Source of the DNA: a bacterium | GTDB lineage: Bacteria > Ratteibacteria > UBA8468 | Direction: 5' to 3' | Assembly (NCBI GenBank): GCA_030637775.1 | Contig: DAOWFY010000140.1 | Span: 1-28,088 of the forward strand | Length of the DNA stretch: 28,088 nt | Part shown: piece after piece, positions 5,326 through 21,844 of the stretch | Layout: the number at the start of each line of letters is the position of its first letter | Position numbering within the stretch: position 1 is the first letter of the stretch | Program-made: the position numbers and the translations under genes | The notes under the pieces: model-generated | Seen by the model: only the letters and a program-made list of their open reading frames with translations | Told to the model about the DNA's origin: nothing | Database searches by the model: none

Positions 5326-5331
5326 ATAACG

Positions 5332-5358: not shown

Positions 5359-5368
5359 AGGGGATAAT

Positions 5369-6709
5369 ATGTTTAGCCGAAGGATTATTAATTATTTGAT
5401 TGACTGGAAGGATAGAGAAACTAGGAAACCTTTAATTCTCCGAGGAGCGAGGCAGGTTGGAAAGACATCGGCTGTTTTGATGTTTGCCCGGAAATATTTT
5501 AAAAATGTAGTTTATTTGAATCTGGAAAAATCTGAACATTCAACTCTTTTTAGAGAAGAACTTTCCCTGGAAGACTTTGAGAAGATTATTCAAATTAAGT
5601 TCCATCAAAGAATTATTCCCGGAGAAACATTGATTTTTATCGATGAGATTCAAAATTCCCCTTCCTTAATTAAACTTTTAAGGTTTTTCTATGAGGAGAG
5701 GCCAGATATTCACGTTATTGGAGCAGGCTCTTTACTTCAGGCAAAGATTGAAAGAGAAGGACTATCCTTGCCTGTAGGGAGGGTAGAGTATGCATACCTT
5801 TATCCTCTGGATTTTTTTGAATATTTAGAGGCGAAGAAAGAAACTGAACTTTTACATTTTTTAAGAAATGTCTCTGTACGGGAACACATTCCTCAAGGTA
5901 TTCATGAGCTTGCTTTAAAACTTTTTTACGAGTATACAATGGTTGGGGGGATGCCGGAGATAGTAAAACTATTTTTAGAAAAAAAGAGCCTTGAAGAACT
6001 TAAGAATATCTATTCATCCCTTTTTACCGGTTATGCTGAAGATGTTTACAAATATTCCTCTTTAGCCAACGCCAAATATTTAACCTACGTTATTGAAAAA
6101 GGACCTCTTTTTGCCGGGACCAATATTACTTATGAAAAATTTGGGGGTTCAAACTTTAGAAGCAGAGAAATGGGGGCGACGTTTGATATCTTAGAAAAGG
6201 TAATGCTTCTTTATCAGGTTCAAGCAACAAAATCCAGAGAACTTCCTTTAATCCCACAGAGAAAAAGGCCTAAAAAACTTTTATTTTTAGATGTCGGTTT
6301 AGTAAACTATCAAATGGGAATTCAAGAAGACTTTTTAAATCTTGGTGACCTTGATGATTTTTATAGAGGGAGAATTGCTGAACAGGTAGTTGGGCAGAAT
6401 ATTTTAGCTCAGTTTATAGATTCCTCTCCACGAGTTTTTTATTGGGCAAGGGAAAAGCCCAAAGGATCTGCCGAGGTTGATTTTTGTTTAAATAAAAAGG
6501 GGAGGATTTTAGGAATAGAAGCAAAATCGGGAAGGTCCAAAAAATTAAAATCCCTTTTTAGTTTTGGCAGTTTGGTAAAAGATAATCACCTTGTTCGGGT
6601 ATATAGCGGAGAGTTAAGAAGAGAGAGGGTTAAAATTAATGATAAAGGTTTTAGTTTAATTTCCCTTCCTTTCTATTTAGTGCCGCGAATTTTAGAGGAG
6701 TTTGGTTGA
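5369..6709 (+). CDS. AAA_14 ATPase with C-terminal DUF4143 and nuclease-like tail
   Basis: Walker A GARQVGKT, Walker B IFIDEIQ, GGMPE, KKLLFLDVGL, and C-terminal EVDF...IEAKSG (PD-(D/E)xK-like). Confidence 0.85.
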   Translation: MFSRRIINYLIDWKDRETRKPLILRGARQVGKTSAVLMFARKYFKNVVYLNLEKSEHSTLFREELSLEDFEKIIQIKFHQRIIPGETLIFIDEIQNSPSLIKLLRFFYEERPDIHVIGAGSLLQAKIEREGLSLPVGRVEYAYLYPLDFFEYLEAKKETELLHFLRNVSVREHIPQGIHELALKLFYEYTMVGGMPEIVKLFLEKKSLEELKNIYSSLFTGYAEDVYKYSSLANAKYLTYVIEKGPLFAGTNITYEKFGGSNFRSREMGATFDILEKVMLLYQVQATKSRELPLIPQRKRPKKLLFLDVGLVNYQMGIQEDFLNLGDLDDFYRGRIAEQVVGQNILAQFIDSSPRVFYWAREKPKGSAEVDFCLNKKGRILGIEAKSGRSKKLKSLFSFGSLVKDNHLVRVYSGELRRERVKINDKGFSLISLPFYLVPRILEEFG

Positions 6710-6744
6710 AAGTTGCTCAATTCAGGCAATGAAGGAGGTTAATT

Positions 6745-8664
6745 ATTAAGCTTTTATTCTTCATCATCACCTATCTTTTCTCCGGGTTTATTCTCAGCAC
6801 CTTCTTTAAGACGATTTTAAAGAAATATAAAGAGATAATAAGTCCGGGAGAAATTTATATCCTTGGCTTTGGGTTGGGGCCAATAGTTATCTCTTTGATT
6901 CTCTGTCTTCTATTCCTATTTTTACCCAATAAAGCGAATCTATTCTATATTCTTATTGTCAGCGTTATTTTTCTCTTAATACTTTTTATTGGCAGAAAAG
7001 ATATTCTTAAGGGAAAGGAATTTTTAGAATGGCTTAAAGGAATAAGGAATATAGAGAAGGACATTGTCTTGATTGTTGCTATCGTCTCCATCGTAATGCT
7101 CTATATCTTTATCCAGGGGATTAACTTTCCGATTGTTGCCAATGATGCTTCAATCTATGCTTTTAATGGCAAGCATCTTTGCCAGGAAAGAAACCTTGCC
7201 AATTACCCAATGGTAATCAATAAAAAAACCGGAGCCTCTCTTCCAGTTCATCATCCCCCAGGACTCCCTTTGATGTATACCTGGTTCTATCTACTGCAAG
7301 GGGATACCGATTCCGATATATTACCCCGAACTGTAGCTCCAATGTATGCTTTATATCTAATCATTCTATTGTGGATTATCCTGAGAACAAGAAAAAATAA
7401 ATACTGTAGCGCCTTCGGGATTCTATTGATGGCTTTAACCCCCCTGTTTATTCAACAGTCATCCGGTAATACAGTTGATCCGGTAAGAATCTTTCTTATT
7501 TTCCTTTCTTTAATCTGCTTAGTTAGATTCATAGAATCTGAATCATTTATTCTGTTTTTGCTTACCGGTATAATTACTGGTTCTTGCATATATATACATT
7601 CGGGGAGCGTTTTAGCTGTGGCAGTGATAATCGCTCTTTATCTATTACTTTATTTCTTGTTCTCCGGGAAAAGTATTAAGAGGAGATTATTCTTTACATT
7701 TTTGCTTGTGCTTGTAATTGGAGGCGGTATATATGGGGCTAAACATACCAGATTGGGTCATACTATTGAACCCGCTTATCTTTCTCTTTCTGCCCTTAAA
7801 CCTCCTGAACCCTCGCATTTCGTAAAAATAGCCCACTTTGGCAAGAGAAGAGCTGAAATTAGCCGAGAACCGGGGAGACGGCTAAAAAGGATTTTTTACG
7901 AAAGATGTCAGGTGTTTTCAACACCAAAGTTTTTTGGTCTTTCCTACTATATTTTTTTGCTCGCTCTTTTTTATTGGATAAGGTATATTCATAAAAAAAG
8001 ATTGGACATCATTTTACTCCTGGGGGCTATTCTTTATGGAGTTCCGGTAATCTATAAGTACTGGATTAACAACCGCTATATCTTCACCATCCATCCCGTA
8101 ATCGCCTATTTTGGAGGTTTAGCAATAGGTTCAGTCTATGGCCGGCTAAGAAACAATAGGTTACGGAGGTTATGGCCGGTAGTTTTAGTTCCTTTAATTG
8201 TCATCATTGGGTGGCATGCCCCTAATTCCATGTTTAACGAAAATTATGTAAAATTTGGGCCCATTAAGAAAGTAGCAAAATATATGTTTGCCAACCAAAA
8301 GGAGAAGTTCCGCAATTCAAATGAGATTCTCCAGGCAATTGAATTTATTAACACGCAAACCCCCGGGGATTCTATTGTCTTAATGTTTAGACGTGCGGAA
8401 TACTTTTACCATAGCGAAAGGAAGGGAATCTGGTATTGTGACCAGAGACTGAAAGCGTTTTATAGGTTACGTAATACAGAAAAAGCATATCGGTATCTAT
8501 TAAATTTAGGTATAGATTACATTATGGTTGATCCCCGTTATGAGCAATGTCGCGCTTTTGAAGGGTCAGAACTTAAAAATATCCTAAAGGATGAAAAAAT
8601 GTCCAAATTAGTATACGAAAATTGGGCAATGGTCTACGAAATTAAAAATGAAACCGACATTTAA
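6745..8664 (+). CDS. Multi-pass GT-C fold glycosyltransferase (PMT/ArnT-like, GT39-type); probable ATT start
   Basis: Many hydrophobic segments; NDASIY first-loop acidic motif; HHPPGLP; C-terminal LGIDYIMVD. Frame is open back to the TGA at 6730-6732; strong SD AAGGAGGT (6732-6739) precedes ATT 6745. The ORF track start (TTG 6874) lies mid-helix. Confidence 0.65.
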   Translation: MKLLFFIITYLFSGFILSTFFKTILKKYKEIISPGEIYILGFGLGPIVISLILCLLFLFLPNKANLFYILIVSVIFLLILFIGRKDILKGKEFLEWLKGIRNIEKDIVLIVAIVSIVMLYIFIQGINFPIVANDASIYAFNGKHLCQERNLANYPMVINKKTGASLPVHHPPGLPLMYTWFYLLQGDTDSDILPRTVAPMYALYLIILLWIILRTRKNKYCSAFGILLMALTPLFIQQSSGNTVDPVRIFLIFLSLICLVRFIESESFILFLLTGIITGSCIYIHSGSVLAVAVIIALYLLLYFLFSGKSIKRRLFFTFLLVLVIGGGIYGAKHTRLGHTIEPAYLSLSALKPPEPSHFVKIAHFGKRRAEISREPGRRLKRIFYERCQVFSTPKFFGLSYYIFLLALFYWIRYIHKKRLDIILLLGAILYGVPVIYKYWINNRYIFTIHPVIAYFGGLAIGSVYGRLRNNRLRRLWPVVLVPLIVIIGWHAPNSMFNENYVKFGPIKKVAKYMFANQKEKFRNSNEILQAIEFINTQTPGDSIVLMFRRAEYFYHSERKGIWYCDQRLKAFYRLRNTEKAYRYLLNLGIDYIMVDPRYEQCRAFEGSELKNILKDEKMSKLVYENWAMVYEIKNETDI

Positions 8665-10114
8665 GGGTATTTCTCAGACTTTCGTTACGGAAACAATAGT
8701 TTTGGCAGGTTTCATCTTTATTTACCGCTTGATCGCCAAAAATTTTGGTCCCGAAGGGGTGGGGGAGTATTCCCTAATCAGAAGAGTGGTTAGTTTTATT
8801 CAACCTTTATTGATTTTAGGTTTAGGGATAGGGCTGCCGAGATATATTGCGATGAGTAGGGATAAAGACCAAAGAATTTCATATATAAAAGCAGGCTTTT
8901 TAGTTATAACAGTTTTTACATCACTTTTTTTGATTGTTATAAATCTATTCAGAGTCTATTTTGCCAGAACATTCTTTGGCAATATTGCTTATACCGATCT
9001 GGTTCTGCCTTTTTCATTTCTTCTGATGGGCTTAGTTTTACACATTTTAATCTATTCCTATTTTCGCGGACGATTATTTGTAAAAACCTTTAATTCTCTC
9101 CAAGTAATAAATTTATCTTTGGTCCCGATTATTATTCTTATTTTTTTCAGAAATATTACGATCTCAAAGTTAATAATTTTAGTAGGCAGTAACACTTTTA
9201 TAATTGCTTTTCTTTTTTCTTTACCCTTTATTAAAGACCTCTTTGCTCCTCTTAAAAAACTACAACTTAAAAATTCATTAAAGGAACTGTTTCGTTATAG
9301 TCTACCTCGCGTTCCCGGTGATTTTGCTCTTGCCGGTCTTTTTTCCTTAGGTCCCATCTTTGCGGCCCATTTTACCCCTATTGAAGAGGTAGGTTATCTT
9401 TCCGTAAGCCAGAGCCTGTTGATTGGAATGTGTGGAATGGTTGCTCCAATAGGCATAATTCTTCTTCCCAGGGTCAGTCTTTTAATCGCTCAAGGGGAGC
9501 AAGAAACAATAAAGAAAAATTTGGATTTGTTTATTGCTGCTATTTTCCAGTGTTCCATCTTTGTGTGTGCTCAACTGATAATATTCACCGAGAGCATCAT
9601 AAAGTACTGGTTGGGTCCTGAATTCTCTGGCGCTATTCCCGTAATGCGTATCGCCCTCCTTTCCACAATTTTTTATACTTTCTATATCGGGATGAGAACT
9701 ATTTTGGATGCCACAAAAGTTAAACCTCTAAATACAATAAACATTTCTATCTCCCTGGGTACTTTTTTGTTAATTGCCGGAATGCTATTGTTCATCTTTA
9801 AGTTCTTTACCCCGGTTATTAGTTTAAGCATCGCCTTTAGTTCGGGATTAATGTCTTTGGGAATTTTAACCTATATTTCCCTGAGAAAGATATATCCGGA
9901 AAACCTGAAAAAGGATTTGAAACATTTCGGGATAGCTACGGTTATTAATCTTTTATTAGCAGGCATCGCGATGTCAACAAAGCCCTTTATAACTTCAAAA
10001 CTTTACTACTTGATTATCTTTGAAATTTTCTTGGGAATAGTTTACTTATCAATTCTATGGTTACTGAAAATGGATTGGCTGAGACAAATCCCTGAAAGAA
10101 TGTTAATAAAATGA
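8648..10114 (+). CDS. wzx: Oligosaccharide flippase (Wzx, MOP superfamily)
   Basis: About 490 aa, hydrophobic throughout, with FGPEGVGEYS...LGLGIGLPRYIA N-terminal pattern, inside a glycan locus. Confidence 0.75.
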   Translation: MKPTFKGISQTFVTETIVLAGFIFIYRLIAKNFGPEGVGEYSLIRRVVSFIQPLLILGLGIGLPRYIAMSRDKDQRISYIKAGFLVITVFTSLFLIVINLFRVYFARTFFGNIAYTDLVLPFSFLLMGLVLHILIYSYFRGRLFVKTFNSLQVINLSLVPIIILIFFRNITISKLIILVGSNTFIIAFLFSLPFIKDLFAPLKKLQLKNSLKELFRYSLPRVPGDFALAGLFSLGPIFAAHFTPIEEVGYLSVSQSLLIGMCGMVAPIGIILLPRVSLLIAQGEQETIKKNLDLFIAAIFQCSIFVCAQLIIFTESIIKYWLGPEFSGAIPVMRIALLSTIFYTFYIGMRTILDATKVKPLNTINISISLGTFLLIAGMLLFIFKFFTPVISLSIAFSSGLMSLGILTYISLRKIYPENLKKDLKHFGIATVINLLLAGIAMSTKPFITSKLYYLIIFEIFLGIVYLSILWLLKMDWLRQIPERMLIK

Positions 10115-11328
10115 TTTTAGTAATAATTTTTGCCATATTCCTTATTCCTACCAAATACACAGCCTTATCTGAGAGGTTGCATTTGCCATCCTTTCTAAAT
10201 CCAGTATTCTGGTTGTTCGCCATTATTTTCACGGTGATTATTATCAATATTCTAATAAGGCAAAAAGTTCCTAAAGTTCCCAAAAGGCTTCTTCTCCCAT
10301 ATATTGGTTTTGAAGGTTTGATGCTCTTAAGCCTTACCTACACGCCAAATTTAATATACGGGGTAGCTAAGTGTCTTGAGTTTATTACCTATACTACCTT
10401 CGCATGTTTTGCTCCTTTTTTCCTATTTCGGAGTAAATTCATCCTTGAGCGATTTTTTTATACATTAATTGCGATGGGCATCTTCCTCGCGATGGCTGTC
10501 TTTATTACTAACCCTCCGTATCTTTCCTCCCCGATTAAATTCCACACCGTATTTGGCACTAATTACTTAGCAATCCAGCAGATTGTGGGAATGGGGGCCT
10601 TAGTAATCCTTTATTACTCCTTATTTAAAAATCGCTCCAGAAAACAGGTAGGTCGGCTTATCCTCCTATTAATAATGCTTATTGGCGCTCTTTTTTATGC
10701 AGGAGGCAAGGGCGCTGTTCTCAGCTTTTTCATCACAATAATTTTTATGTCAATCGCCTCTATTAAATTTGAGAATAAGTTTAAAAAGATATTAATCAAT
10801 AAGCGGATATTAATTTTTTCCTTTTTGGTGATTTTTGCCGGAGGTTCATTATTATTTTCGAGAATGAGTAAGGCTTTTCTTGCGCGCACCAAGTTTTTAT
10901 TATTGGCTGGGTCCTATGCTCAGGTAGAAAGGTTAGAAAATGCAAAGGTTGCTTTAGAATTAGCTTATTGCCATCCTCTCTCTGGAGTAGGAGTAGGTGG
11001 ATTTAGTGATTTTTCTATTCAGATGAAGGATATAGAAAGATTTAAATACCCGCATAATATATTTTTAGAGGTTATTTCTGAATTGGGCCTGATTGGTTTC
11101 ATATTTTTTGTTCTGATAATCGCCTTTGCTTTTAAACAGCTTCTTTATTTACAAAGCAAATATCGACATTCAGAGTTATATCCCTTGCCCAATGTAATTC
11201 TTGGCCTCTTTATCTTTTCTTTCTTAAATTCTTTAGCTTCGGGTGATATCAATAACCATTTACTTTTTGCCTGGATTGGCAGCGCATATGCCATTGAACA
11301 GGTTTTAAAATCAAATTTTGACATTTAA
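10111..11328 (+). CDS. O-antigen polymerase/ligase family membrane protein (Wzy_C)
   Basis: Multi-pass; HPLSGVGVGGF and YPHNIFLEVISELGLIG motifs. Position after wzx suggests a polymerase. Confidence 0.8.
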   Translation: MILVIIFAIFLIPTKYTALSERLHLPSFLNPVFWLFAIIFTVIIINILIRQKVPKVPKRLLLPYIGFEGLMLLSLTYTPNLIYGVAKCLEFITYTTFACFAPFFLFRSKFILERFFYTLIAMGIFLAMAVFITNPPYLSSPIKFHTVFGTNYLAIQQIVGMGALVILYYSLFKNRSRKQVGRLILLLIMLIGALFYAGGKGAVLSFFITIIFMSIASIKFENKFKKILINKRILIFSFLVIFAGGSLLFSRMSKAFLARTKFLLLAGSYAQVERLENAKVALELAYCHPLSGVGVGGFSDFSIQMKDIERFKYPHNIFLEVISELGLIGFIFFVLIIAFAFKQLLYLQSKYRHSELYPLPNVILGLFIFSFLNSLASGDINNHLLFAWIGSAYAIEQVLKSNFDI

Positions 11329-11470: not shown

Positions 11471-11767
11471 ATGAAGAAAATTTCAGAAAACCCAGAAAAG
11501 GAAATTAAGAATATTATCTTTCAGTTTTTGGACCCTAAGGAATATCAAGTTTTCATTTTTGGCTCAAGGGTTACTGGAAAAGCACAAAAATATAGCGATT
11601 ACGATGTAGGAATTCGGGGCAAAAAATCTTTACCTTCCAAGATTAAAGTTTTGATTGAAGAAGCATTGGAAGAATCTGATTTGCCTTACAAGGTTGATAT
11701 TATTGATTTTTCTTTGGTCTCTCCCAACTTTAAAAAAGTGGCTTTATCAAAAATTAAAAAATTATGA
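11471..11767 (+). CDS. mntA: Minimal nucleotidyltransferase (MNT) antitoxin
   Basis: 98 aa; GS-X10-DXD motif (GSRVTGKAQKYSDYD); VDII; ATGA overlap with the HEPN gene. Confidence 0.85.
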   Translation: MKKISENPEKEIKNIIFQFLDPKEYQVFIFGSRVTGKAQKYSDYDVGIRGKKSLPSKIKVLIEEALEESDLPYKVDIIDFSLVSPNFKKVALSKIKKL

Positions 11768-12135
11768 CTAAGTCAGAAAGTTTGATTAAAGATCTCAAAA
11801 AGGCTAATCAAAGATTAAAAGAAGCAACTGAAGCTAAACCGACAAGGATGAATAGAGATGCAACCATTCAAAGATTTGAATTCACTTTTGAACTTGCCTG
11901 GAAGACAATTCAAGAATATGTCCGAGACCAGGGTCTTGATTGCAAAAGTCCTAAAAATTGTATTCGAGAAGGAGGTCGGCTGGAATTAATCGAGAATGTC
12001 GAAAAATGGTTTAAGTTTTTAGATAATAGAAACCTTATTGCTCACACCTATAATGAGAAATTAGCCAACAAAGTTTATCGTAAGGCCTTGAAGTTTCCCC
12101 AGGAAATAGATGGTTTATTGGAAAGCCTTGGTTAG
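11764..12135 (+). CDS. hepT: HEPN-domain RNase toxin (HI0074 / nucleotidyltransferase substrate-binding family)
   Basis: RDATIQRFEFTFELAWK and RX4HXY motif RNLIAHTY; immediately downstream of the MNT gene. Confidence 0.85.
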   Translation: MTKSESLIKDLKKANQRLKEATEAKPTRMNRDATIQRFEFTFELAWKTIQEYVRDQGLDCKSPKNCIREGGRLELIENVEKWFKFLDNRNLIAHTYNEKLANKVYRKALKFPQEIDGLLESLG

Positions 12136-12207: not shown

Positions 12208-13224
12208 ATGGACAATTTACCTTTGGTTTCAATAATTATTCCCTGCCGCAATGAGGAAAAATTCATTGAGAAATGTCTTGATTCCATTGTCTTACAGGAT
12301 TATCCCAAGGAGAGCTTAGAGGTTTTGGTTGTCGATGGGATGAGTGGGGATGGGACAAGAGATATTATAAGAAGCTATGCGCAAGAGCATTCCTTTATCG
12401 GGCTTCTGGATAACCCAAAGAAAATCACTCCTTGTGGATTAAATACAGGCATTAAAAATGCAAAGGGAGAAATTATTTTATGGATGAGTGCCCACAACAG
12501 ATATAAGAAGGATTATATATCAAAATGCATTAAGTATCAGAAAGAATATAATGCCGATAATGTGGGTGGGAGGATGGTAACTCTACCCAGGAATGACACC
12601 TTTATCGGCAAAGCTATAGTTAATGTCTTATCTCATCCTTTTGGCGTTGGCAATTCCATTTTCAGAATAGGCGCAAAGAAACCGAGATGGGTGGATACCG
12701 TGTTTGGTGGCTGCTATAAAAAAGAGGTTTTTGATAAAATTGGGCTTTTCAACGAGAATCTTGCCCGAGGTCAGGATATGGAATTTAATTTAAGGTTAAA
12801 AAGAGCGGGACTGAAAACTTTATTAGTCCCTGAGATTGTAAGTTATTATTATGCCCGCTCTGACTTTAAGTCATTTTATAAGTATAATTTTGTAAATGGG
12901 TTCTGGGCTATTCTTCCTTTTAAATTTACCAAGATAATGCCTGTTTCCTTAAGGCATTTGATTCCTTTTATATTTGTTCTTAGTTTAATGGGGAGTGGAA
13001 TTCTCTCCTTCTTTCTTCCTCTCTTTCGCCGGATATTTTTGCTTATTGTTGGTCTATATTTCTTGACCAATATCTATTTTTCCCTTAAAATTGCCTTAAA
13101 AAAGAAAAATATAAAATACCTGTTTATGATGCCGATAGTATTTGCATCACTTCATACAGGATATGGTTTAGGTTCAATCTGGGGGGCGATAAAATTGTTG
13201 TTGCCGGGCAAAAAGAAGGATTAA
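12208..13224 (+). CDS. Glycosyltransferase family 2 (ExoA-like)
   Basis: VSIIIPCRNEE, VVDGMSGDGT, FNENLARGQDMEFNLRL, and C-terminal hydrophobic helices. Confidence 0.9.
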   Translation: MDNLPLVSIIIPCRNEEKFIEKCLDSIVLQDYPKESLEVLVVDGMSGDGTRDIIRSYAQEHSFIGLLDNPKKITPCGLNTGIKNAKGEIILWMSAHNRYKKDYISKCIKYQKEYNADNVGGRMVTLPRNDTFIGKAIVNVLSHPFGVGNSIFRIGAKKPRWVDTVFGGCYKKEVFDKIGLFNENLARGQDMEFNLRLKRAGLKTLLVPEIVSYYYARSDFKSFYKYNFVNGFWAILPFKFTKIMPVSLRHLIPFIFVLSLMGSGILSFFLPLFRRIFLLIVGLYFLTNIYFSLKIALKKKNIKYLFMMPIVFASLHTGYGLGSIWGAIKLLLPGKKKD

Positions 13225-13233
13225 GATAAAAAA

Positions 13234-13262
13234 TTGTCTCTAGAGGAATTTTGTGGTAAAAT
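13234..13262 (+). promoter_or_regulatory. sigma70-type promoter of the RelE-type TA pair
   Basis: TTGTCT (13234-39), 17 nt, TG-g-TAAAAT (13257-62); SD GGAGGT at 13270-75. Short palindromes CTCTAGAG (13238-45) and AATTTT-gtggt-AAAATT (13247-63) overlap the promoter. Confidence 0.65.
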
Positions 13263-13283
13263 TTATAATGGAGGTGAGGGTTA

Positions 13284-13475
13284 ATGGGCAATAAAACAGT
13301 AAATATTCCAGTAAGAACTATTCATAAACTTCAAGAGGTTTTAACAGAATTAGAAAAGGCAATTTCTCCCTATAAAGCCAAATTTCTGGCAAGAATGTAT
13401 CGAGCCAGAGCCTCTGATTTGGAGGGAAAGGGAAAGAATTTGCCAGAAATTAAAAAACGATTCGGGAAGGATTGA
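13284..13475 (+). CDS. Putative type II antitoxin (63 aa)
   Basis: Good SD; TGATG overlap with a RelE/ParE-like gene; C-terminal pattern RARASDLEGKGKNLPEIKKRFG resembles antitoxin tails. The call rests mainly on position. Confidence 0.6.
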   Translation: MGNKTVNIPVRTIHKLQEVLTELEKAISPYKAKFLARMYRARASDLEGKGKNLPEIKKRFGKD

Positions 13476-13756
13476 TGGGCTCTCGCTATGAAGTTATTTT
13501 TCTCCCCGAGGCAGAGGAAGACTTAGAAGATTTAGATCCTTCCATCCGTAAAAGGTGTTTAACCAAAATCGAATGGTTATCTTTGCATCCTGAAGTTCTC
13601 GGCAAGAAACCTCTCCAAAGTTTACCATCTTCCCTAAAAGGTCTTAACAGTTATGTAGTCGGTAATTGGCGAATTCTTTATTGGGTATACCCATCGCAAA
13701 AGTGCATCAAAATATATGGCATTCAGCATCGTTCTTCCATATACAAACATCTTTAA
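13475..13756 (+). CDS. RelE/ParE family toxin
   Basis: 93 aa; YEVIFLPEAEEDLEDLD...VGNWRILY...GIQHRSSIY matches the RelE/ParE layout. Confidence 0.8.
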   Translation: MGSRYEVIFLPEAEEDLEDLDPSIRKRCLTKIEWLSLHPEVLGKKPLQSLPSSLKGLNSYVVGNWRILYWVYPSQKCIKIYGIQHRSSIYKHL

Positions 13757-14358
13757 TGTTAAAGCGATTGTTTGATATTGTTTTTTCTTTTATCGGGCTT
13801 GTAGTTCTATCTCCCCTTTTTCTTCTTGTCTCCATTTTAATAAAGTTAGATTCGAAGGGTCCAGTCTTTTATCGGGGAGTAAGGATTGGCAGATTTGGTA
13901 AATCATTCAGGATATATAAATTCAGAACGCTGGTGGCCAATGCCGATAAGATTGGGGGTCCTTCTACCGCTGATGATGACCCAAGAATTACTAAAATTGG
14001 CAGACTTATCAGAAAGTATAAATTGGATGAATTCCCCCAACTTATTAATGTCCTTTTTGGCAAGATGAGCCTTGTGGGTCCCAGGCCTCAAGTTCCGGAG
14101 GATGTTGCGCTCTATACCAAAGAGGAAAGGGCTATTCTGAATGTGCTCCCCGGGATAACGGACTACGCATCGATCAAGTTCAGTAACGAGGGAAAAATCC
14201 TTCGTGGCAGTACCGATACGGATAAGGTCTATGTAGAAAAGATAAGGTCTGAAAAACTCAGGCTTGAGCTGGTATATGCCAGAAATCACTCGCTTGGGAT
14301 TGATTTCAAAATCCTGTTGAAAACTTTAAGAACCCTGTTTGATAGAGGAAGAGACTGA
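13756..14358 (+). CDS. Small phosphoglycosyl transferase (Bac_transf, PglC-like)
   Basis: MLKRLFD, YKFRTL, LDEFPQLINVLFGKMSLVGPRP, PGITD. Start set at ATG 13756 (TAATG overlap with the toxin stop). Confidence 0.9.
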   Translation: MLKRLFDIVFSFIGLVVLSPLFLLVSILIKLDSKGPVFYRGVRIGRFGKSFRIYKFRTLVANADKIGGPSTADDDPRITKIGRLIRKYKLDEFPQLINVLFGKMSLVGPRPQVPEDVALYTKEERAILNVLPGITDYASIKFSNEGKILRGSTDTDKVYVEKIRSEKLRLELVYARNHSLGIDFKILLKTLRTLFDRGRD

Positions 14359-15188
14359 TGGCTCAGTTATATAAAGAGGAAATTAATGAGTATAGAGAGA
14401 TTGCTAAGCAAATTAGAAGAGAAATACTTAGTATGGCCTATAAATCAAAAAGCCCGCATATTGGATCATCCCTTTCTATCGTTGAGATATTGGTAGCATT
14501 ATACTTCAAGTGTCTTTCGATTTCCCCCGATGCGCCTCAGGATGAAGGTAGAGACAGGTTCATTTTAAGCAAGGGGCATGGCTGCCCGGCATTATATGCT
14601 ACCCTTGCCTATAGAGGAGTCTTTAGCAAAGAGATTTTATCTGGATTTGCTGTCAATGGAGGTACGTTAGAGCAACATCCAAGTCGTGATATTAAGCGAG
14701 GGATTGAGGTTTCCACCGGTTCTTTGGGCCATGGGCTTTCAATCGGCGTGGGAATGGCTCTTGCCGCAAAGTATAACAGAGCAAACTATAGAGTAATTGC
14801 GCTTTTAAGTGACGGAGAAATGAACGAGGGCTCAGTTTGGGAAGCGGCGATGTTCGCTGCTCACCATAAACTTGACAACCTGATTGCAATCGTTGACTAT
14901 AATGAGCTTCAAGCATTAGGGAGAACAAATGAGGTGGTCAATTTAGAACCACTTGCTGGGAAATGGCATTCCTTTGGATGGGGGGTCCAGGAAATTGATG
15001 GACATAGTTTCAAAGAGATCATAAATATTTTTCAAAAAATTCCATTTCGGCAACAAAAACCAAGTGTTATTATCGCTCATACTATAAAAGGGAAAGGCGT
15101 CTCGTTTATGGAGGGCAAACTTCTCTGGCATTACCGACATCCAGATGACGAAGAATACAAAAGAGCATTAGAGGAGCTTTCTCGATAG
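14358..15188 (+). CDS. Transketolase-like ThDP enzyme, N-terminal subunit
   Basis: HIGSSLS, DRFILSKGH, GSLGHG, GDG-like SDGEMNEG ThDP motif, TIKGKG. Confidence 0.9.
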   Translation: MAQLYKEEINEYREIAKQIRREILSMAYKSKSPHIGSSLSIVEILVALYFKCLSISPDAPQDEGRDRFILSKGHGCPALYATLAYRGVFSKEILSGFAVNGGTLEQHPSRDIKRGIEVSTGSLGHGLSIGVGMALAAKYNRANYRVIALLSDGEMNEGSVWEAAMFAAHHKLDNLIAIVDYNELQALGRTNEVVNLEPLAGKWHSFGWGVQEIDGHSFKEIINIFQKIPFRQQKPSVIIAHTIKGKGVSFMEGKLLWHYRHPDDEEYKRALEELSR

Positions 15189-15193
15189 AACAT

Positions 15194-16117
15194 ATGAGAA
15201 CTACTTTCATAAAGACACTGGAAAAGGTCGCCGCGCGCGATGATAGTATCTTTTTGCTTACAGCAGATTTAGGCTTCAAATTATTTGATAGATTTAGGGA
15301 CGCCTATTCTGAAAGATTCATAAATGTTGGCGTTGCCGAAGCAAATATGATCGGTATTGCCGCAGGATTGGCCCTATCAGGGAAAAATGTTTATTGCTAT
15401 TCGATCGCTCCATTTTTGACGATGCGCTGTCTTGAACAGATTCGAATTGACCTCTGCTATCAAAACCTCAATGTAAAGTTGTTGGGCATTGGCGGAGGAT
15501 TGGTTTATGGCCTCGAAGGTACAACCCATCACGCAGTGGAGGATCTGGCCATTATGCGCTCATTGCCTAATATGACAGTGGTTGCTCCCGGGGATAAACG
15601 AGAAGCCGAAGCTTTAGCAAACGAATCGGTTCGGTACCAGGGTCCGATCTATATCCGGCTAAGCAAAGAGGGGGGAATCCAGGTTCATAAAACTACTCCC
15701 GGTCTTAAGATTGGCAAAGGATTCATTGTTAAGGAAGGAGCCGGTCTCACCATTATTACTGCCGGCAACCTTCTCTTTACCTCAAAATCGGTCTCGGATA
15801 TCCTGGAAAGCAAAAATGTAAAGACGACATTAATCAGCATGCATACAATAAAGCCTTTAGATATCAAACTTCTTGAAAGATGCCTCAAGACGAGTAAGGC
15901 AATATTTACCATAGAGGAACATAGTATTGTTGGAGGACTGGGTTCGGCGGTTGCCGAAGTTTTATTGGAGTTAGGTTACAAAGGAATATTTCGTCGCTTC
16001 GGACTTCCGGATAGGTATGGACCATATATTGGAAAAACCGAATATCTCCGTAAGAAATATCGCCTCACTCCAAAAGCGATTGCAAATTCCATTTTAAGAG
16101 TTTTAAATTACAAATAG
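15194..16117 (+). CDS. Transketolase-like ThDP enzyme, pyrimidine-binding/C-terminal subunit
   Basis: NVGVAEANM, THHAVED, MHTIKPLD, EEHSIVGGLGSAVAE. Confidence 0.9.
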   Translation: MRTTFIKTLEKVAARDDSIFLLTADLGFKLFDRFRDAYSERFINVGVAEANMIGIAAGLALSGKNVYCYSIAPFLTMRCLEQIRIDLCYQNLNVKLLGIGGGLVYGLEGTTHHAVEDLAIMRSLPNMTVVAPGDKREAEALANESVRYQGPIYIRLSKEGGIQVHKTTPGLKIGKGFIVKEGAGLTIITAGNLLFTSKSVSDILESKNVKTTLISMHTIKPLDIKLLERCLKTSKAIFTIEEHSIVGGLGSAVAEVLLELGYKGIFRRFGLPDRYGPYIGKTEYLRKKYRLTPKAIANSILRVLNYK

Positions 16118-16133
16118 CGAGGAGGGTTATGAT

Positions 16134-16889
16134 ATGAAATCCAAGATTAAGCCCGAAGGTGGTCTTAGGACAAAAGCGGAAAGAGAAGTGGGTAAAAAAC
16201 TGGAAAGGATTTTTCTTGATTGCCCCGAGAGCATCGAGGCAAAGTTGGAAAACTTTACAAAATATGTAAAACGGCAAAAAGTCACACGTTTTTTAGCGCT
16301 ATACGAAATTTTTAAAAAAGTTTTACCCATTAAAGGCTCGATCATCGAGTGCGGTGTCTATCGAGGTTTTGGACTTATGGCCTGGGCCCAGATGAGCGCT
16401 GTTTTGGAACCAGCAAATCTAACCAGGCGAATATATGGATTTGATACCTTCGAGGGGTTCTCTTCGGTGACAAAAGAAGACAAAAGCAAACATTGTCAGG
16501 TAAAACCCGGCGGTCTTTCTTCTAATTCATTTAATGAGTTGAACAAGTTAATCAAAGCGTATGATTCAAACAGGTTTTTGGGTCATATAAGCAAGGTTCA
16601 ATTAATAAAGGGGAATGCCACCAAAACCATTCCAGAATTTATTAAAAATAACAAACACCTTGTTGTAAGTCTGTTATTTTTAGATTTTGATTTATTTGAA
16701 CCAACCAGGGTCGCAATTGAAAACTTCTACCCCAGGATGCCAAAAGGCTCAATCATCGCCTTTGATGAATTAGATAACCCTATTTGGCCAGGGGAGTCGA
16801 TGGCTCTTCTTAAAACGATAGGGATAAACAGGTTAAAAATAGAGAGGATTGAATTTGATCCCTATATCGGTTATGCCGTTATCAATTAA
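16134..16889 (+). CDS. TylF/MycF-related O-methyltransferase
   Basis: GSIIECGVYRG, IYGFDTFEGF, DFDLFEPT, GSIIAFDE; SD AGGAGG at 16120-16125. Confidence 0.75.
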   Translation: MKSKIKPEGGLRTKAEREVGKKLERIFLDCPESIEAKLENFTKYVKRQKVTRFLALYEIFKKVLPIKGSIIECGVYRGFGLMAWAQMSAVLEPANLTRRIYGFDTFEGFSSVTKEDKSKHCQVKPGGLSSNSFNELNKLIKAYDSNRFLGHISKVQLIKGNATKTIPEFIKNNKHLVVSLLFLDFDLFEPTRVAIENFYPRMPKGSIIAFDELDNPIWPGESMALLKTIGINRLKIERIEFDPYIGYAVIN

Positions 16890-16904
16890 AAGAACTTAAA
16901 TAAT

Positions 16905-18014
16905 ATGACTTATAAAGTTCCTTTTGTGAATTATCCCGCCCACTATCGGAGTATGGAAAGGGAAATAGATACGGTTATAAAGGAGGTTCTGTCTAAGGGA
17001 GACCTGATTCTCCGTTCCGATGTACGGGATTTTGAAGATAATATGGCCAATTTTCTGGAAGTAAAGTATGCAGTGGGTGTTAACAGCTGCACCGATGCGA
17101 TGACACTTTCTTTAGTAGCTGCCGGAATAAAAAGGAATGATGAAGTTATCACCGTCGCCCATACCTTTGTGGCTACAATATCGGCTATTGTCCATTGTGG
17201 TGCTACCCCTGTTCTAATAGATGTTGGAGAAGATTTTAATATGGATATGGAAAAATTAGAGCCGGCCATAACCCCTAAAACAAGGGCGATTATCCCGGTT
17301 CATCTTAATGGTCATCTTTGTGATATGGAAAGGTTAGTCTCTATTGCAAATAAGCATAATTTAATCGTGATCGAGGATTCGGCTCAGGCGTTAGGTGCAA
17401 CATTTAATAAAAAAAAGGGAGGGGCATTTGGCCTGGCTGGCTGTTTTAGTTTCTACCCCGCAAAAATTCTGGGAGCAGCAGGAGATGCCGGACTGGTATC
17501 TACGAACGACAAAAATTTTGCAGAAAAAATTCGCCTTCTTAGAGATCATGGGCGGCGAGGCAAAAATGAGATAGCCTGCTATGGTTTCACCAGTCGTTTA
17601 GACAACCTTCAGGCAGCTATCCTCAATATTAAGTTAAAATATGTGCCAAATTGGATTCAAAGAAGACGGGAAATCGTTGACCTTTACAACGAGGGGCTTT
17701 CTAACGTCCCCGGCATAAAACTACCGCCTCCACCAAATTCCGATACTCGATTCTTCGATGTGTATCAAAATTATGTTTTGAGGGTTTCTAAAAGAGACAC
17801 CCTCGCCTTACATTTAAAGGAGAGGGGAATTGAAACTATAATTTCAAACCCTATACCCCTCCACCATCAGAAGGCTTTGGGGCTTTTGCATTTCAATCTT
17901 CCAAACACTGAGCAATTTGCAAAAAAGGTTATCTCTCTTCCAAATGTGCCCGAGCTAACTGACGAACAGATTGAATATGTAATCCAATCAATTCGTAGTT
18001 TATATACGGAATAA
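16905..18014 (+). CDS. DegT/DnrJ/EryC1/StrS PLP-dependent sugar aminotransferase
   Basis: VNSCTDA, IEDSAQA, FSFYPAKILG with the PLP lysine, SRLDNLQAA. Confidence 0.92.
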   Translation: MTYKVPFVNYPAHYRSMEREIDTVIKEVLSKGDLILRSDVRDFEDNMANFLEVKYAVGVNSCTDAMTLSLVAAGIKRNDEVITVAHTFVATISAIVHCGATPVLIDVGEDFNMDMEKLEPAITPKTRAIIPVHLNGHLCDMERLVSIANKHNLIVIEDSAQALGATFNKKKGGAFGLAGCFSFYPAKILGAAGDAGLVSTNDKNFAEKIRLLRDHGRRGKNEIACYGFTSRLDNLQAAILNIKLKYVPNWIQRRREIVDLYNEGLSNVPGIKLPPPPNSDTRFFDVYQNYVLRVSKRDTLALHLKERGIETIISNPIPLHHQKALGLLHFNLPNTEQFAKKVISLPNVPELTDEQIEYVIQSIRSLYTE

Positions 18015-18015
18015 T

Positions 18016-18795
18016 ATGAGAACCGATTATTCTACAGTAACAGAAATACCGGGAAGCAAGATAACAGGCGAGCAATTAACCAGAATTTATCAACGTTATT
18101 TCTTTGCTGCGCAATTCTGTCAGGGAAAGGATGTATTGGAGGTTGCCTGTGGGGCGGGAATAGGGTTGGGTTATCTGGCAAAATTTGCAAAAAGGGTGGT
18201 TGCTGGGGATATTGATAAAAACATTTTAAGATATGCCCAGGAGCATTATCAAGGAAGAGACAATATTGAACTTCAATTGCTTGATGCTCATCAGTTACCT
18301 TTTGAAAATGGTAGCTTTGACGTGGTACTCTTGTATGAGGCAATCTACTATCTTGCTCAACCCAAAAAATTTGTTGAGGAAGCCCATCGGGTGCTAAGAG
18401 AAGACGGAACACTTATCACCTGTACAGTAAACAAGGATTGGTCCGATTTTAACACTTCTCCATTCAGCACTAAATATTTTTCTGCTTCCGAGCTCTTTTT
18501 GTTGCTTAATCGGAGGTTTTCCAAGGTAGAGATTTATGGAGCATTCCCTACCTCTGCCAATTCAATAAAGGACAAGATAATATCTTCAATCAAGAGAACT
18601 GCCGTCACCCTTCACCTGATGCCAAAAACGATGAAAGGTAAAGAGTTTCTTAAAAGAATCTTCTTTGGTCAACTATTGAGACTGCCCGCAGAAATAAAGG
18701 AGAAAATGACCGAATATTCTTTTCCTCTTCCCATTTCACCTACCTCCCCTAATCCTTGCTATAAGATCTTGTTTGCTGTAGCTCGGCCCCACTGA
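18016..18795 (+). CDS. Class I SAM-dependent methyltransferase
   Basis: Motif I VLEVACGAGIG, GDID, DAHQLPF, SFDVV, VLREDG. Confidence 0.85.
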   Translation: MRTDYSTVTEIPGSKITGEQLTRIYQRYFFAAQFCQGKDVLEVACGAGIGLGYLAKFAKRVVAGDIDKNILRYAQEHYQGRDNIELQLLDAHQLPFENGSFDVVLLYEAIYYLAQPKKFVEEAHRVLREDGTLITCTVNKDWSDFNTSPFSTKYFSASELFLLLNRRFSKVEIYGAFPTSANSIKDKIISSIKRTAVTLHLMPKTMKGKEFLKRIFFGQLLRLPAEIKEKMTEYSFPLPISPTSPNPCYKILFAVARPH

Positions 18796-18803
18796 GAATC
18801 TTC

Positions 18804-18832
18804 TTTACTTTTGACCATAAAACTGGTAAAAT
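18804..18832 (+). promoter_or_regulatory. sigma70-type promoter overlapping the first ATG of an (ATG)4 run
   Basis: TTTACT (18804-09), 17 nt, TG-g-TAAAAT (18827-32); no SD present. Confidence 0.5.
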
Positions 18833-20642
18833 GATGATGATGAAAAAGGGAATTTTTTTTCTATTAATCGCCGATATCATCCTTATTTATTCGGCAACAA
18901 TCTTAGCCTTCTGTATCCGCTTTCCTGACTTTCTGACCACACCTAACTTTCAGGCATACCAACCGATTGCTGTCTTTCTTGTAGTCATTAAACTTATTGT
19001 TTATTTGCTCTTTGGTCTCTACGGTGGAATCTGGAGGTACGCCAGCATTAATGAAGCCTTCTCTATATTTAAGGCAGTAACTGTAGCCTCCTTAGCAACG
19101 ATCGGTTTTGTCTTCTTTGTCCGGGTTCTTTCCTTTCCCCGTTCAGTCCTTCTGCTTGATTGGTTTTTCAATCTCCTTTTTATCGGTGGGGTAAGGTTTG
19201 CTCTCCGGTTGCGTAAAGAATTTCGAAAGCGTCAAGTGGCTCCCAACAAGCGGTTACTCATTATGGGAGCCGGCGATGCCGGGGAGATGGTCTTGCGTGA
19301 GATTCAGAAACACCCCGAGTTAGGTTATAAGGTTGTAGGCTTTATCGATGATGACTTAAAAAAGGTGGGAAGAAGAATCCATAATTTAGGGGTTTTAGGA
19401 ACAAGAAGGGAAATTGCCAGAATCGTTTCCCAGAAGAATGTTAATGAAATTGTTATCGCCATCCCTTCTGCCTCGGGGAAGACGATTAGAGAAATTGTCA
19501 GTTATTGCGAAAGGACAAGGGCAAAGTTAAAGATTCTACCCGGAATGTATAAGGTCATTAAGGGAGATGTGACTATCTCCCAGATCAGGGAGGTAAAACC
19601 AGAGGATCTTTTGGGCAGAGAGACGATTGAGATAAACTTAGAGGAGATCTCTCAATATTTAAGGGATAAATCTGTACTTGTCACCGGAGCAGCCGGCTCC
19701 ATCGGTTGCGAACTTTCCCGTCAAGTTATGAAATTTAACCCTAAGAAACTTCTCCTTTTGGATAATAATGAAAACGAGACCTATTTCCTGCAGATGGAGT
19801 TAAAGAAAAAGGAACATTCATTCCCGATCATTTTTCTTGTCAATGATATCAAAGAGAAGCAAGTCTTAGAGGCGATCTGGAAAGAGCACCAGCCAGAGGT
19901 AGTTTTCCACGCCGCCGCACACAAGCATGTTCCCTTGATGGAGGAAAATGTTGTTGGGGCAGTGAGAAATAACGTCCTGGGAACAAAAAATTTAATGGAG
20001 GCAGCAAAAAAAACGGAGAGGTTCATTCTTATCTCCACCGATAAGGCGGTGAATCCAAAAAGTATTATGGGGGCAACCAAAAGAATTACTGAATTAATGA
20101 TGCAACTCTCTACAAATGAAACAAAATTCTGTGCGGTGAGATTCGGCAATGTCCTGGGAAGTAAAGGAAGTGTAATTCCCCTCTTTAAAAAACAGATTGC
20201 CGAAGGTGGTCCGGTAACCGTAACCCATCCGGAAATAAAGCGCTACTTTATGAGTGCCCGGGAGGCGGTCAGCCTCATCATTCAGGCCGGAGCAATGAGT
20301 AAAGGTGGGGAGGTCTTTATTCTCGATATGGGAGAGCCGATAAAGATTATTGATTTAGCAAAAGACCTCATCACCCTCTCTGGTCTTCAACCGGAGACCG
20401 ATATTCCTGTTAAGATTATTGGTCTTCGTCCGGGAGAGAAGCTCAACGAGGAACTACTGACCGCCGAGGAGGGTATAAAAGCTACCAAGCATAAGAAGAT
20501 CTTTGTTGCCAGACCGGATACTGTTAATCCAGAAGAGTTACTAAAAGACCTCGATGATTTAGAAAGACTTACTCTCTCCGGAGAAAGAGATTCGATCGTC
20601 AAAAGGCTTCAGAAGATGAGGGTATTGCGAGGAGATGAATGA
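18831..20642 (+). CDS. Membrane-bound UDP-GlcNAc 4,6-dehydratase (PglF/CapD/WbpM type)
   Basis: N-terminal TM helices; two Rossmann motifs (GAGDAG; TGAAGSIG); HAAAHKHVP; STDKAV; MGATK; VRFGNVLGS. The real start may be ATG 18837 or 18840. Confidence 0.92.
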   Translation: MMMMKKGIFFLLIADIILIYSATILAFCIRFPDFLTTPNFQAYQPIAVFLVVIKLIVYLLFGLYGGIWRYASINEAFSIFKAVTVASLATIGFVFFVRVLSFPRSVLLLDWFFNLLFIGGVRFALRLRKEFRKRQVAPNKRLLIMGAGDAGEMVLREIQKHPELGYKVVGFIDDDLKKVGRRIHNLGVLGTRREIARIVSQKNVNEIVIAIPSASGKTIREIVSYCERTRAKLKILPGMYKVIKGDVTISQIREVKPEDLLGRETIEINLEEISQYLRDKSVLVTGAAGSIGCELSRQVMKFNPKKLLLLDNNENETYFLQMELKKKEHSFPIIFLVNDIKEKQVLEAIWKEHQPEVVFHAAAHKHVPLMEENVVGAVRNNVLGTKNLMEAAKKTERFILISTDKAVNPKSIMGATKRITELMMQLSTNETKFCAVRFGNVLGSKGSVIPLFKKQIAEGGPVTVTHPEIKRYFMSAREAVSLIIQAGAMSKGGEVFILDMGEPIKIIDLAKDLITLSGLQPETDIPVKIIGLRPGEKLNEELLTAEEGIKATKHKKIFVARPDTVNPEELLKDLDDLERLTLSGERDSIVKRLQKMRVLRGDE

Positions 20643-21844
20643 ATGCCCGAGAAAAATTGGTGAACCACTTAGAAAATATTGTAGAAATCTTTTTTCTCCT
20701 CTCGGTCTTCTGCATCCCTGCCGGTCCCGTCCTAAAGTATATCTTCCAGGGCGTTCTTCTTTTTACCTGGATTGTTAAACTTATCGTAAAAAGAGGAATA
20801 GAATTTAACCCTACCTCTCTGGATTACCCCATCCTTCTTTTCGTTATTCTTGGTTTTGCCTCTGTCGTCATAAATTATACGACATTTTATCAAGCCGGGA
20901 AGGGCTTTTCCAATCTCTTGGAATGGTTCTTTGCCTTTTACATTATCGTCCATCTTATCAGAAGAAAGGAACAGCTTAAAAGATTTACCAAGGTCTGGCT
21001 TTTCTCCGCCCTTACCGTTACCTTATATGGTATTTATCAAATTATAAGAGAACCAGGAGGTGCTGTAATCAGCTCCTTTTTCACTCTTAACTCCTATCTG
21101 GCTCAATACCTTGTCCTTATTATGCCGGTAATCCTTGCGCTCCTTCTCTTTAAAAAAACAAAAAAGGAGGGCTCCCGTCCGGTGGACGGGATGGGGAGAA
21201 TCTTTTTGGGAATAATCCTTCTTTTAACCTGGTTTCTCCTTGGCTTAACTATGGAAAGAGGTCCCTGGTTAGGAATCATAGTTGGACTTCTGATGATGGG
21301 GATAGTTCTTCGGGATAAGCGCATCCTTATCGGAATCCCCCTTCTCCTTATGTTGAGCTTCTTTATCTCTCCTCCATCCATCAGAATAAGAGCCATCTCT
21401 ATCTTCCAGCCACGCTGGAGTTTAGAAAGGCTTTACTGCTGGAGGTCTTGTCTCTCAATGACTAAAGACCATCCCTTCTTTGGGGTGGGATTGGGCAACT
21501 TCCGTTATGTTTACCCAAAATATATGCTCGGCGCAGCAAAGGTGAAGTTCCTGCATGCCCATAATATCTTCTTCCAGATTGCTACCGAAATGGGAATCCC
21601 GGGACTGCTTGTTTTCCTCTGGCTATTGTTTAATTTCTTTAAAGCCACCCTTTCTCACATTCAGAAAGACAAATACTTAAGAGCCCTGAATGTAGGTTTT
21701 TCCGCGGGAATCATTGCGATATTGGTCACCAGCCTTTTCCATGATATCTTTCATAGCCGGCAGATTGCCACTTTAACCTGGTATATTATCGGAATGGCGA
21801 TAGCCTCTCATAAGCTGAAAGATCAAGAGACCCCCGGCGATTAA
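20639..21844 (+). CDS. O-antigen ligase family protein (WaaL/Wzy_C)
   Basis: Multi-pass; ERGPW, HPFFGVGLGNF, HAHNIFFQIATEMGIPG. Confidence 0.82.
   Translation: MNAREKLVNHLENIVEIFFLLSVFCIPAGPVLKYIFQGVLLFTWIVKLIVKRGIEFNPTSLDYPILLFVILGFASVVINYTTFYQAGKGFSNLLEWFFAFYIIVHLIRRKEQLKRFTKVWLFSALTVTLYGIYQIIREPGGAVISSFFTLNSYLAQYLVLIMPVILALLLFKKTKKEGSRPVDGMGRIFLGIILLLTWFLLGLTMERGPWLGIIVGLLMMGIVLRDKRILIGIPLLLMLSFFISPPSIRIRAISIFQPRWSLERLYCWRSCLSMTKDHPFFGVGLGNFRYVYPKYMLGAAKVKFLHAHNIFFQIATEMGIPGLLVFLWLLFNFFKATLSHIQKDKYLRALNVGFSAGIIAILVTSLFHDIFHSRQIATLTWYIIGMAIASHKLKDQETPGD
21164..21194 (+). repeat. 31-bp SD-hairpin-ATG element, copy 1 (in-frame in the ligase gene)
   Basis: AAGGAGGGCTCCCGT-ccggtgg-ACGGGATGG; 27/31 identical to 26531-26561 (-). 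Confidence 0.8.

Follow-up and report, generated by a model that had tools for sequence, protein, structure and literature searches.

A second, split transketolase in a Ratteibacteria glycan locus: a candidate route to C-4 branched amino sugars

Thiamine diphosphate (ThDP)-dependent branching of nucleotide sugars is established for enzymes of the YerE type and of the E1 type, whereas for transketolases (TKs) it is a proposal, made for two Streptomyces antibiotic pathways only (PMC12247030). YerE of Yersinia pseudotuberculosis and the YerE-like lyases ErwE and MMAR_2332 attach a carbon branch to a nucleotide-activated 4-keto-6-deoxy sugar, and the branch's ketone is subsequently processed, for a surface polysaccharide (PMC12247030); YerE is a single-chain member of the decarboxylase (acetolactate-synthase-like) superfamily, which takes 2-oxo acids as donors and CDP-3,6-dideoxy-4-keto-glucose as acceptor. 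The alpha-keto acid dehydrogenase-2 type E1 pairs (AviB1/B2, aldgamycin, KbDH-alpha/beta) consist of two subunits, homologous in fold to the N- and C-terminal subunits of split transketolases (TK-N and TK-C), and add a two-carbon (C2) branch to nucleotide diphosphate (NDP)-keto sugars in actinomycete antibiotic pathways, with pyruvate as the donor; for KbDH, acceptance of ketones has been demonstrated (PMC12247030). In the Streptomyces pathways that make miharamycin and amipurimycin, TKs encoded by split genes are proposed to pass a hydroxyacetyl group on to a keto sugar, which has not been shown in vitro (PMC12247030, a 2025 review), and the same review summarises 13 further putative split-TK cases, all from Streptomycetes (Krug et al. 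2024). Here, we describe a split TK in a different setting. It is encoded on the forward strand, at 14358-16117, of a window of 28,088 nucleotides, i.e. the whole stretch of DNA analysed (contig DAOWFY010000140.1 of assembly GCA_030637775.1, from a bacterium of the Ratteibacteria, UBA8468), in an operon that most likely makes the first sugar of a surface glycan in a modified form. On balance, we favour a pathway in which this enzyme adds a C2 unit to a UDP-4-keto sugar, the newly created ketone being aminated thereafter.

The locus resembles each of the described systems in part. As with the miharamycin and amipurimycin TKs, compared here by description, a ThDP enzyme of the TK type with two subunits is encoded among sugar-tailoring genes, and the proposed product is a tertiary alcohol; those enzymes belong to antibiotic pathways with a nucleoside-sugar core, found in Streptomycetes only, whereas the present cassette would serve a surface glycan, is UDP-GlcNAc-based, includes a PglC-like starter transferase and occurs in about a dozen mostly uncultured phyla. 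In contrast to YerE, the present enzyme has the fold of a TK, consists of two chains and stands in the context of a UDP-HexNAc and, in contrast to the E1-type pairs, it scores as a TK (Transketolase_N 6e-40 versus E1_dh 2.3e-7). The bacillosamine module of Campylobacter and Neisseria (PglF, PglE, PglD and PglC) likewise brings together a small PglC-like transferase, a PglF-like dehydratase and an aminotransferase of the DegT family, which produce the reducing-end sugar from UDP-GlcNAc; the cassette differs from it by the absence of a PglD acetyltransferase, by an aminotransferase that is nearer to C-3 enzymes and by the TK pair placed between PglC and DegT. The nearest solved structures of both subunits (6YAK for TK-N, 1.9e-78; 6YAJ for TK-C, 5e-58) are those of the housekeeping split TK of Carboxydothermus hydrogenoformans, which has the same two-gene architecture, fold and catalytic His, Glu and metal residues; three of its pocket positions are occupied by His, Asp and Ser, in contrast to Gly, Glu and Lys in the clade to which the cassette enzyme belongs. 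A literature search found no paper on a transketolase in PglF/PglC-type surface-glycan, O-antigen or capsule loci.

A sequence-only reading of this DNA had grouped the split TK with a TylF-like methyltransferase, a DegT aminotransferase and a second methyltransferase, beside a UDP-GlcNAc 4,6-dehydratase, as a candidate pathway for an unusual branched or elongated sugar. The listing of open reading frames (ORFs) of the window bears out all five ORFs at exactly 14358-18795 on the + strand, and Pfam matches confirm the enzyme families, including that of the dehydratase. Genes were assigned by Pfam, NCBIfam and PDB matches of window ORFs of at least 80 amino acids, the set to which statements on genes not found in the window refer:

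12208-13224, + strand: GT2 glycosyltransferase (Glycos_transf_2, 1.7e-25)
13756-14358, + strand: small PglC-like phosphoglycosyl transferase (Bac_transf, 4.8e-60)
14358-15188, + strand: transketolase N subunit, with the ThDP diphosphate-binding domain (Transketolase_N, 6e-40)
15194-16117, + strand: transketolase C subunit, with the pyrimidine-binding and C-terminal domains (Transket_pyr, 7.6e-32; Transketolase_C, 3.2e-21)
16134-16889, + strand: CalS11/TylF-like O-methyltransferase (TylF, 2.6e-12)
16905-18014, + strand: DegT-family aminotransferase dependent on pyridoxal phosphate (PLP) (DegT, 9.4e-105)
18016-18795, + strand: class I methyltransferase dependent on S-adenosylmethionine (SAM) (Methyltransf_11, 1.2e-23)
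18831-20642, + strand: PglF/WbpM-like membrane-anchored UDP-GlcNAc 4,6-dehydratase (Polysacc_synt_2, 1.9e-113; CoA_binding_3)
20639-21844, + strand: Wzy_C-family protein, polymerase- or ligase-like, the final gene of the operon (Wzy_C, 5.8e-23)

The gene order in the cassette is PglC-like, TK-N, TK-C, CalS11/TylF-like O-methyltransferase, DegT, class I methyltransferase, PglF-like and Wzy_C. Its genes overlap or are separated by spacers of 0-35 bases, and in a consensus scan, neither promoter-like nor terminator-like sites were in excess; the tight spacing and the lack of such an excess fit one operon. The PglC-like ORF is listed from a TTG at 13666; its most likely start is the ATG at 13756, which yields the usual form of ~200 amino acids with the N-terminus MLKRLFDIVFS. 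The stop codon of a ParE-type toxin gene overlaps this start (TAATG, 13753-13758).

The simplest explanation for such a pair would be ordinary metabolism: a normal pentose-phosphate TK that raises precursor supply (e.g. of sedoheptulose-7-P for heptoses), or a mere passenger of the locus. Both subunits do match curated TK models, and their catalytic residues are all intact. However, both fall below the NCBIfam TK cut-offs (they exceed those of Pfam Transketolase_N, Transket_pyr and Transketolase_C), and the genome assembly (1.4 Mb, 83.5% complete) encodes a second, better-scoring split TK on contig C137, directly adjoining a fructose-6-P aldolase/transaldolase-family gene: the C137 pair reaches 364 and 322 bits with the curated transketolase model, the cassette pair 280 and 166 bits. 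The two pairs are 50% identical in TK-N and 41% in TK-C, and the best 120 matches listed in a database search with the cassette TK-C range from 57 to 90% identity, so that each of them is considerably closer to it than the housekeeping copy is. A maximum-likelihood tree unites 51 cassette-type TK-C sequences in a single clade (SH-aLRT 99), to which neither the housekeeping TK of the same genome nor any of the other TK/DXS-type genes from five cassette-carrying genomes belongs; such other genes are present in all five genomes examined. The cassette pair is thus neither the only transketolase of its genome nor a member of the housekeeping split TKs, outcomes that the sequence-only reading had named as speaking against it, and, as judged by sequence, it is an extra, specialised TK copy. 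An altered substrate pocket speaks against this explanation as well, and a fixed place between PglC and DegT across phyla, accompanied by gene fusions (all described below), would be unexpected of a supply enzyme; a role in ordinary metabolism is highly improbable. Heptose precursor supply in particular was rejected: Pfam scans of the window turned up none of the heptose-pathway genes GmhA, GmhB and HldE, and the housekeeping TK is encoded elsewhere. A pyruvate dehydrogenase E1/E2 set is located on contig C99 of the same genome.

Residues of the clade were mapped in E. coli numbering by aligning them, with HMMER, to the split TK of C. hydrogenoformans and to human TK; the equivalent of Ser385 was taken as the residue four positions past a conserved Asp in the human-TK alignment. 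His26, His66, His100, Asp155, Asn185 and His261 are invariant in 49 TK-N sequences of the clade, and so are Glu411 and His473 in 51 TK-C sequences; the residues for ThDP chemistry and donor cleavage are kept, and the enzymes are predicted to be competent. Of these residues, the histidines serve ketol cleavage of the donor and binding of its C1 hydroxyl, Asp155 and Asn185 belong to the ThDP/metal motif, and Glu411 activates the cofactor. The positions that are altered belong to the pocket in which an aldose-phosphate acceptor is bound by its phosphate and its C2 hydroxyl. Gly replaces His461 in every one of the 51 TK-C sequences, and Glu replaces Asp469 in 49; at position 385, Lys or Arg is found in 39 and the original Ser in just one, and position 520 is relaxed, with Arg or Lys in only 38 of the 51. 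The cassette clade thus does not retain the sugar-phosphate pocket of housekeeping pentose-phosphate TKs as defined by Arg358, Ser385, His461, Arg520 and, for the C2 hydroxyl of the acceptor, Asp469. The TK-N subunits carry markers of their own: GSLG-H-G, QALG in place of QIDG and WHY in place of WHG. The substitutions in TK-C indicate a pocket that is remodelled, roomier and still basic, not one that is simply lost; remodelled in this manner, it would suit a nucleotide-diphosphate sugar.

Related loci were collected by a pattern scan in which each species was represented by one genome. It yielded 58 loci, of which the 50 with a callable TK-C were used for counts. Carriers were found in about a dozen phyla overall, among them Chloroflexota, Aminicenantes/Acidobacteriota, Patescibacteria (including Saccharibacteria), Nitrospirota, Desulfobacterota-type groups, Actinomycetota, Elusimicrobia and one planctomycete (Jettenia). 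The link to solved glycan structures that the sequence-only reading had called for was not attained, as all 58 related loci stem from metagenome-assembled genomes and no cultured carrier was found among them. The TK-C tree is discordant with the phyla, the copy of the window grouping with copies from Chloroflexota, Aminicenantes and Desantisbacteria. Moreover, among 40 relatives of the window's genome, no TK match exceeded 53% identity, and a genome of the same genus has the housekeeping type only. The discordance and the lack of cassette-type TKs in close relatives suggest that the cassette spread horizontally.

Across this diversity, the arrangement is well conserved. TK-N adjoins TK-C in 46 of the 50 loci, DegT follows immediately after TK-C in 35 and lies at most five genes away in 39, and in 33 the TK has a PglC-like gene no more than five genes away. 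PglF is located downstream in 22 of the 33 loci that comprise at least 5 kb of downstream sequence (the window counted). The two methyltransferases are less constant: a TylF-like gene, placed before TK-N or after TK-C, is present in 15 of the 50 loci and a Methyltransf_11 gene, mostly just after DegT, in 14. The conserved core therefore comprises PglC, TK-N, TK-C and DegT, often with PglF, and both methyltransferases are optional accessories. Of the five-gene pathway envisaged in the sequence-only reading, the association of the TK pair with DegT is upheld by gene order and fusions, whereas the methyltransferases fall outside the conserved core.

In six loci (L012, L020, L039, L047, L055 and L057), an aldo-keto reductase of ~317 amino acids is encoded beside the PglC-like gene. 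The TK is retained in all six, and in five of them no DegT adjoins it, which suggests that these loci make a hydroxy variant of the sugar instead of the amino variant. Related loci combine a 4,6-dehydratase as the presumed source of keto sugar with a candidate processor of the branch ketone, either DegT or the aldo-keto reductase, as would be expected of a sugar-branching context. Directly after DegT, a class III or class I/II aminotransferase is encoded in L009 (12982-14337) and L024 (12181-13341), and one also occurs after DegT in L026, L029, L037, L039, L049 and L060; the extra enzyme is a hint that such variants aminate a second time or recycle the amino donor.

The TK is tied to the aminotransferase, to the starter transferase and to keto-sugar-forming enzymes independently by natural fusions, which were identified in searches for longer TK-N and TK-C relatives and confirmed by Pfam. 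TK-C is fused to DegT in P0121, P0129 and P0153, the first of which is 70% identical to the TK-C of the window and shares its GxG...LEGxTHH motif; DegT precedes TK-N in P0244 and P0245, and a PglC-like domain precedes TK-N in P0247, P0248 and P0251. A short-chain dehydrogenase/reductase (SDR) is joined to TK-N in P0246, and TK-C to an SDR in P0127 and P0229. In further relatives, the fusion partner is GT2 or one of several types of methyltransferase. The equivalent of His461 is also missing in the fused relatives examined. Together, the second TK in the genome, the separate clade, the conserved gene order and the fusions to DegT, PglC-like and SDR domains lend support to the notion of an unusual branched-sugar pathway.

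Relatives of both TK subunits are in addition fused to radical SAM/SPASM, zinc alcohol dehydrogenase, FkbM methyltransferase, PhyH dioxygenase and kinase domains (tailoring-enzyme fusion proteins P0123, P0126, P0124, P0130, P0249-P0255, P0257 and P0262). Given this variety, the sugar-tailoring TK family looks much broader than the cassette described here.

The DegT protein of the window retains the PLP lysine, in the motif SFYPAK. Its nearest structures are C-3 aminotransferases (DesV, 2.1e-78; QdtB, 3.6e-74; WlaRG, 5.6e-73; WbpE, 8.6e-63), and C-4 type enzymes score far weaker (PglE, 3.1e-33; PseC, 1.5e-35), although this similarity does not fix the position that is aminated. A 3,4-ketoisomerase of the cupin type was not among six small unassigned ORFs sampled from related loci, which were VanZ (two), RDD, HEPN, PIN and SAM decarboxylase. 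A C-3-like DegT in combination with no 3,4-ketoisomerase among the sampled ORFs fits, without proving it, the amination of an unusual ketone.

The role of DegT also bears on an explanation in which the TK supplies an N-acyl group. DegT would first produce UDP-4-amino-4,6-dideoxy-HexNAc, of the bacillosamine or AAT type, and the C2 unit of the TK would become its N-acetyl or N-glycolyl group; a phosphoketolase-like dehydration to acetyl-ThDP, or an oxidation, would thus replace the absent PglD-type acetyltransferase. An N-acetyltransferase is indeed missing from the core cassette: Pfam scans detected no hexapeptide or GNAT acetyltransferase in the window, and GNAT is found in only about 4-6 of the 50 loci. 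DegT, furthermore, adjoins the TK subunits and is fused to them in some relatives, as N-acyl supply would have it. The aldo-keto reductase loci, however, all keep the TK, while five of the six have no DegT beside it; no lipoyl, acyl carrier protein (ACP), CoA or redox partner is conserved, and DegT itself is nearer to the C-3 than to the C-4 UDP-sugar aminotransferases. Moreover, we know of no direct acyl-ThDP aminolysis by a TK-type enzyme. We judge N-acyl supply to be quite improbable.

From the genes, paralogy, clade, residues, gene order and fusions observed, we infer an acceptor, a donor, a position of attack and an order of steps for the C2 transfer that we prefer. The PglF-like dehydratase would, by its family membership, convert UDP-GlcNAc into UDP-2-acetamido-2,6-dideoxy-hexos-4-ulose. 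The split TK would form the usual ThDP-bound C2 carbanion; since it keeps the two histidines by which the C1 hydroxyl of the donor is held, the unit transferred is most likely glycolaldehyde, drawn from a ketose phosphate or from hydroxypyruvate, and a pyruvate-derived acetyl branch would be a less likely alternative to the hydroxyacetyl branch. The TK would then attack the C-4 ketone of the UDP-sugar, and not an aldose phosphate, giving rise to a tertiary alcohol whose branch is hydroxyacetyl (or acetyl). DegT would turn the ketone of the branch into an amine; in some variant loci, its reduction by the aldo-keto reductase may take the place of this step. In this genome, O-methylation of the nucleotide sugar is the probable task of the CalS11-like enzyme, and methylation of the new amine that of the class I methyltransferase. 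The PglC-like transferase would put the finished sugar-1-phosphate on undecaprenyl phosphate, and GT2 and the Wzy_C protein would then extend and deliver the glycan. The product could be, for example, 4-C-(1-amino-2-hydroxyethyl)-6-deoxy-HexNAc, here presumably methylated in addition. The core of the cassette comprises one ketone maker, the dehydratase, and two ketone users, a carboligase and either an aminotransferase or a reductase; since ketol transfer uses one ketone and creates one, the set is self-consistent.

The assignment of the first methyltransferase is based on its nearest structure, CalS11 (PDB 4GF5/3TOS; 6e-42 over residues 15-238), and on a TylF score of 47 bits against a cut-off of 23. 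CalS11 is a TDP-rhamnose 3'-O-methyltransferase, which acts on the nucleotide sugar before glycosyl transfer. For the class I methyltransferase, a PDB search returned no specific solved relative. Copies of the GT2 gene were detected by tblastn in 13 related loci, at 46-62% identity except for two weaker ones at 27-28%; in 11 loci, the copy is located upstream of PglC and, according to family clustering, GT2 lies within five genes of TK-C in nine.

Several observations weigh against C2 transfer to a UDP-4-keto sugar. Acceptance of a ketone by a TK has never been shown, and the sole precedent is itself unproven in vitro (PMC12247030). The identity of the donor and the site of attack cannot be read from sequence, and no glycan structure is known from any carrier. 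Nor do we know of a precedent for an exocyclic ketone as the substrate of a DegT enzyme. In the pocket, Arg358 is kept as Arg or Lys in 49 of the 51 TK-C sequences and, with this residue and a basic position 520 in place, a phosphorylated small substrate may be accommodated. Finally, PglF is not detected within 10 kb in approximately one third of the loci with enough flanking sequence.

The missing PglF genes and the partly kept basic residues of the pocket would also be in line with a different acceptor, i.e. a TK that makes a carbon-carbon bond for the glycan elsewhere than at C-4 of a UDP-4-keto sugar: another carbonyl might be extended, or a small keto compound might be aminated by DegT and attached later as a substituent. 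The diverse tailoring fusions of the relatives (kinases, radical SAM, FkbM methyltransferases, PhyH) point in the same direction, as the wider TK family, given this diversity, probably handles several substrates. Yet it is to the PglC-like transferase and to DegT that the TK is most tightly linked, by adjacency and by the fusions of its relatives, and the conserved genes do not include a ligase or transferase that could attach a separate substituent. In loci without PglF, a different SDR of the 4,6-dehydratase type often adjoins TK-N; in L011 and L028, it is a GDP_Man_Dehyd-type SDR (the NDP-sugar 4,6-dehydratase type), encoded directly upstream of TK-N. A different acceptor therefore appears unlikely to us, and branching at C-4 of the UDP-4-keto sugar remains the preferred reading.

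The wider window consists of two glycan modules, 1-11328 and 12208-21844, each with its own starter transferase and Wzy_C protein; the upstream module has a large WbaP-like starter transferase (3856-5196), the downstream one the small PglC-like enzyme (13756-14358). The GC content rises from 0.33-0.40 in the upstream module to 0.38-0.44 in the TK cassette and 0.46-0.50 in the housekeeping genes beyond it, and the 3' end of the Wzy_C gene overlaps that of the convergent lgt gene by ~72 bases (21773-21844). Two toxin-antitoxin pairs, MNT/HEPN (11471-12135) and ParE/RelE type (13234-13756), lie within the glycan locus on the strand of the cassette. In agreement with the earlier remark that no dedicated nucleotidyltransferase is in view, Pfam scans detected no sugar-1-phosphate nucleotidyltransferase in the window, and its sole gene of the nucleotidyltransferase fold is the MNT half of the former pair (11471-11767).

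At the other end of the cassette, a Wzy_C homologue follows PglF in L036, and a Wzy_C+TPR protein of ~690-760 amino acids follows PglF in the Saccharibacteria-type loci L014-L018, L034, L040 and L056. The latter protein may be an oligosaccharyltransferase similar to PglL; if so, the branched sugar could serve as the anchor of a glycan linked to protein. L017 and L018 are two near-identical whole cassettes on two contigs of one 0.7-Mb Saccharibacteria-type assembly, reflecting either a true duplication or redundant assembly.

What is new here is a large and well-delimited TK clade with a signature of Gly for His461, Glu for Asp469 and Lys for Ser385, whose fixed partners and natural fusions point to its substrate and whose carrier phyla are mostly without cultured members. 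The question of whether a TK can transfer a hydroxyacetyl group onto a ketone thereby becomes testable, starting from UDP-GlcNAc. A more far-reaching proposal, which we regard as possible rather than probable, is that the clade represents the first TK family with a ketone acceptor, turning UDP-4-keto-6-deoxy-HexNAc into a new class of C-4 branched sugars at the reducing end of surface or protein-linked glycans in many uncultured phyla, including the tiny-genome Patescibacteria. If the proposed pathway is correct, it would (i) reveal branched amino sugars of an undescribed family as the base on which bacterial glycans are built, (ii) provide an annotation rule to tell such genes from those of housekeeping transketolases and (iii) open a biocatalytic route to functionalised tertiary alcohols.

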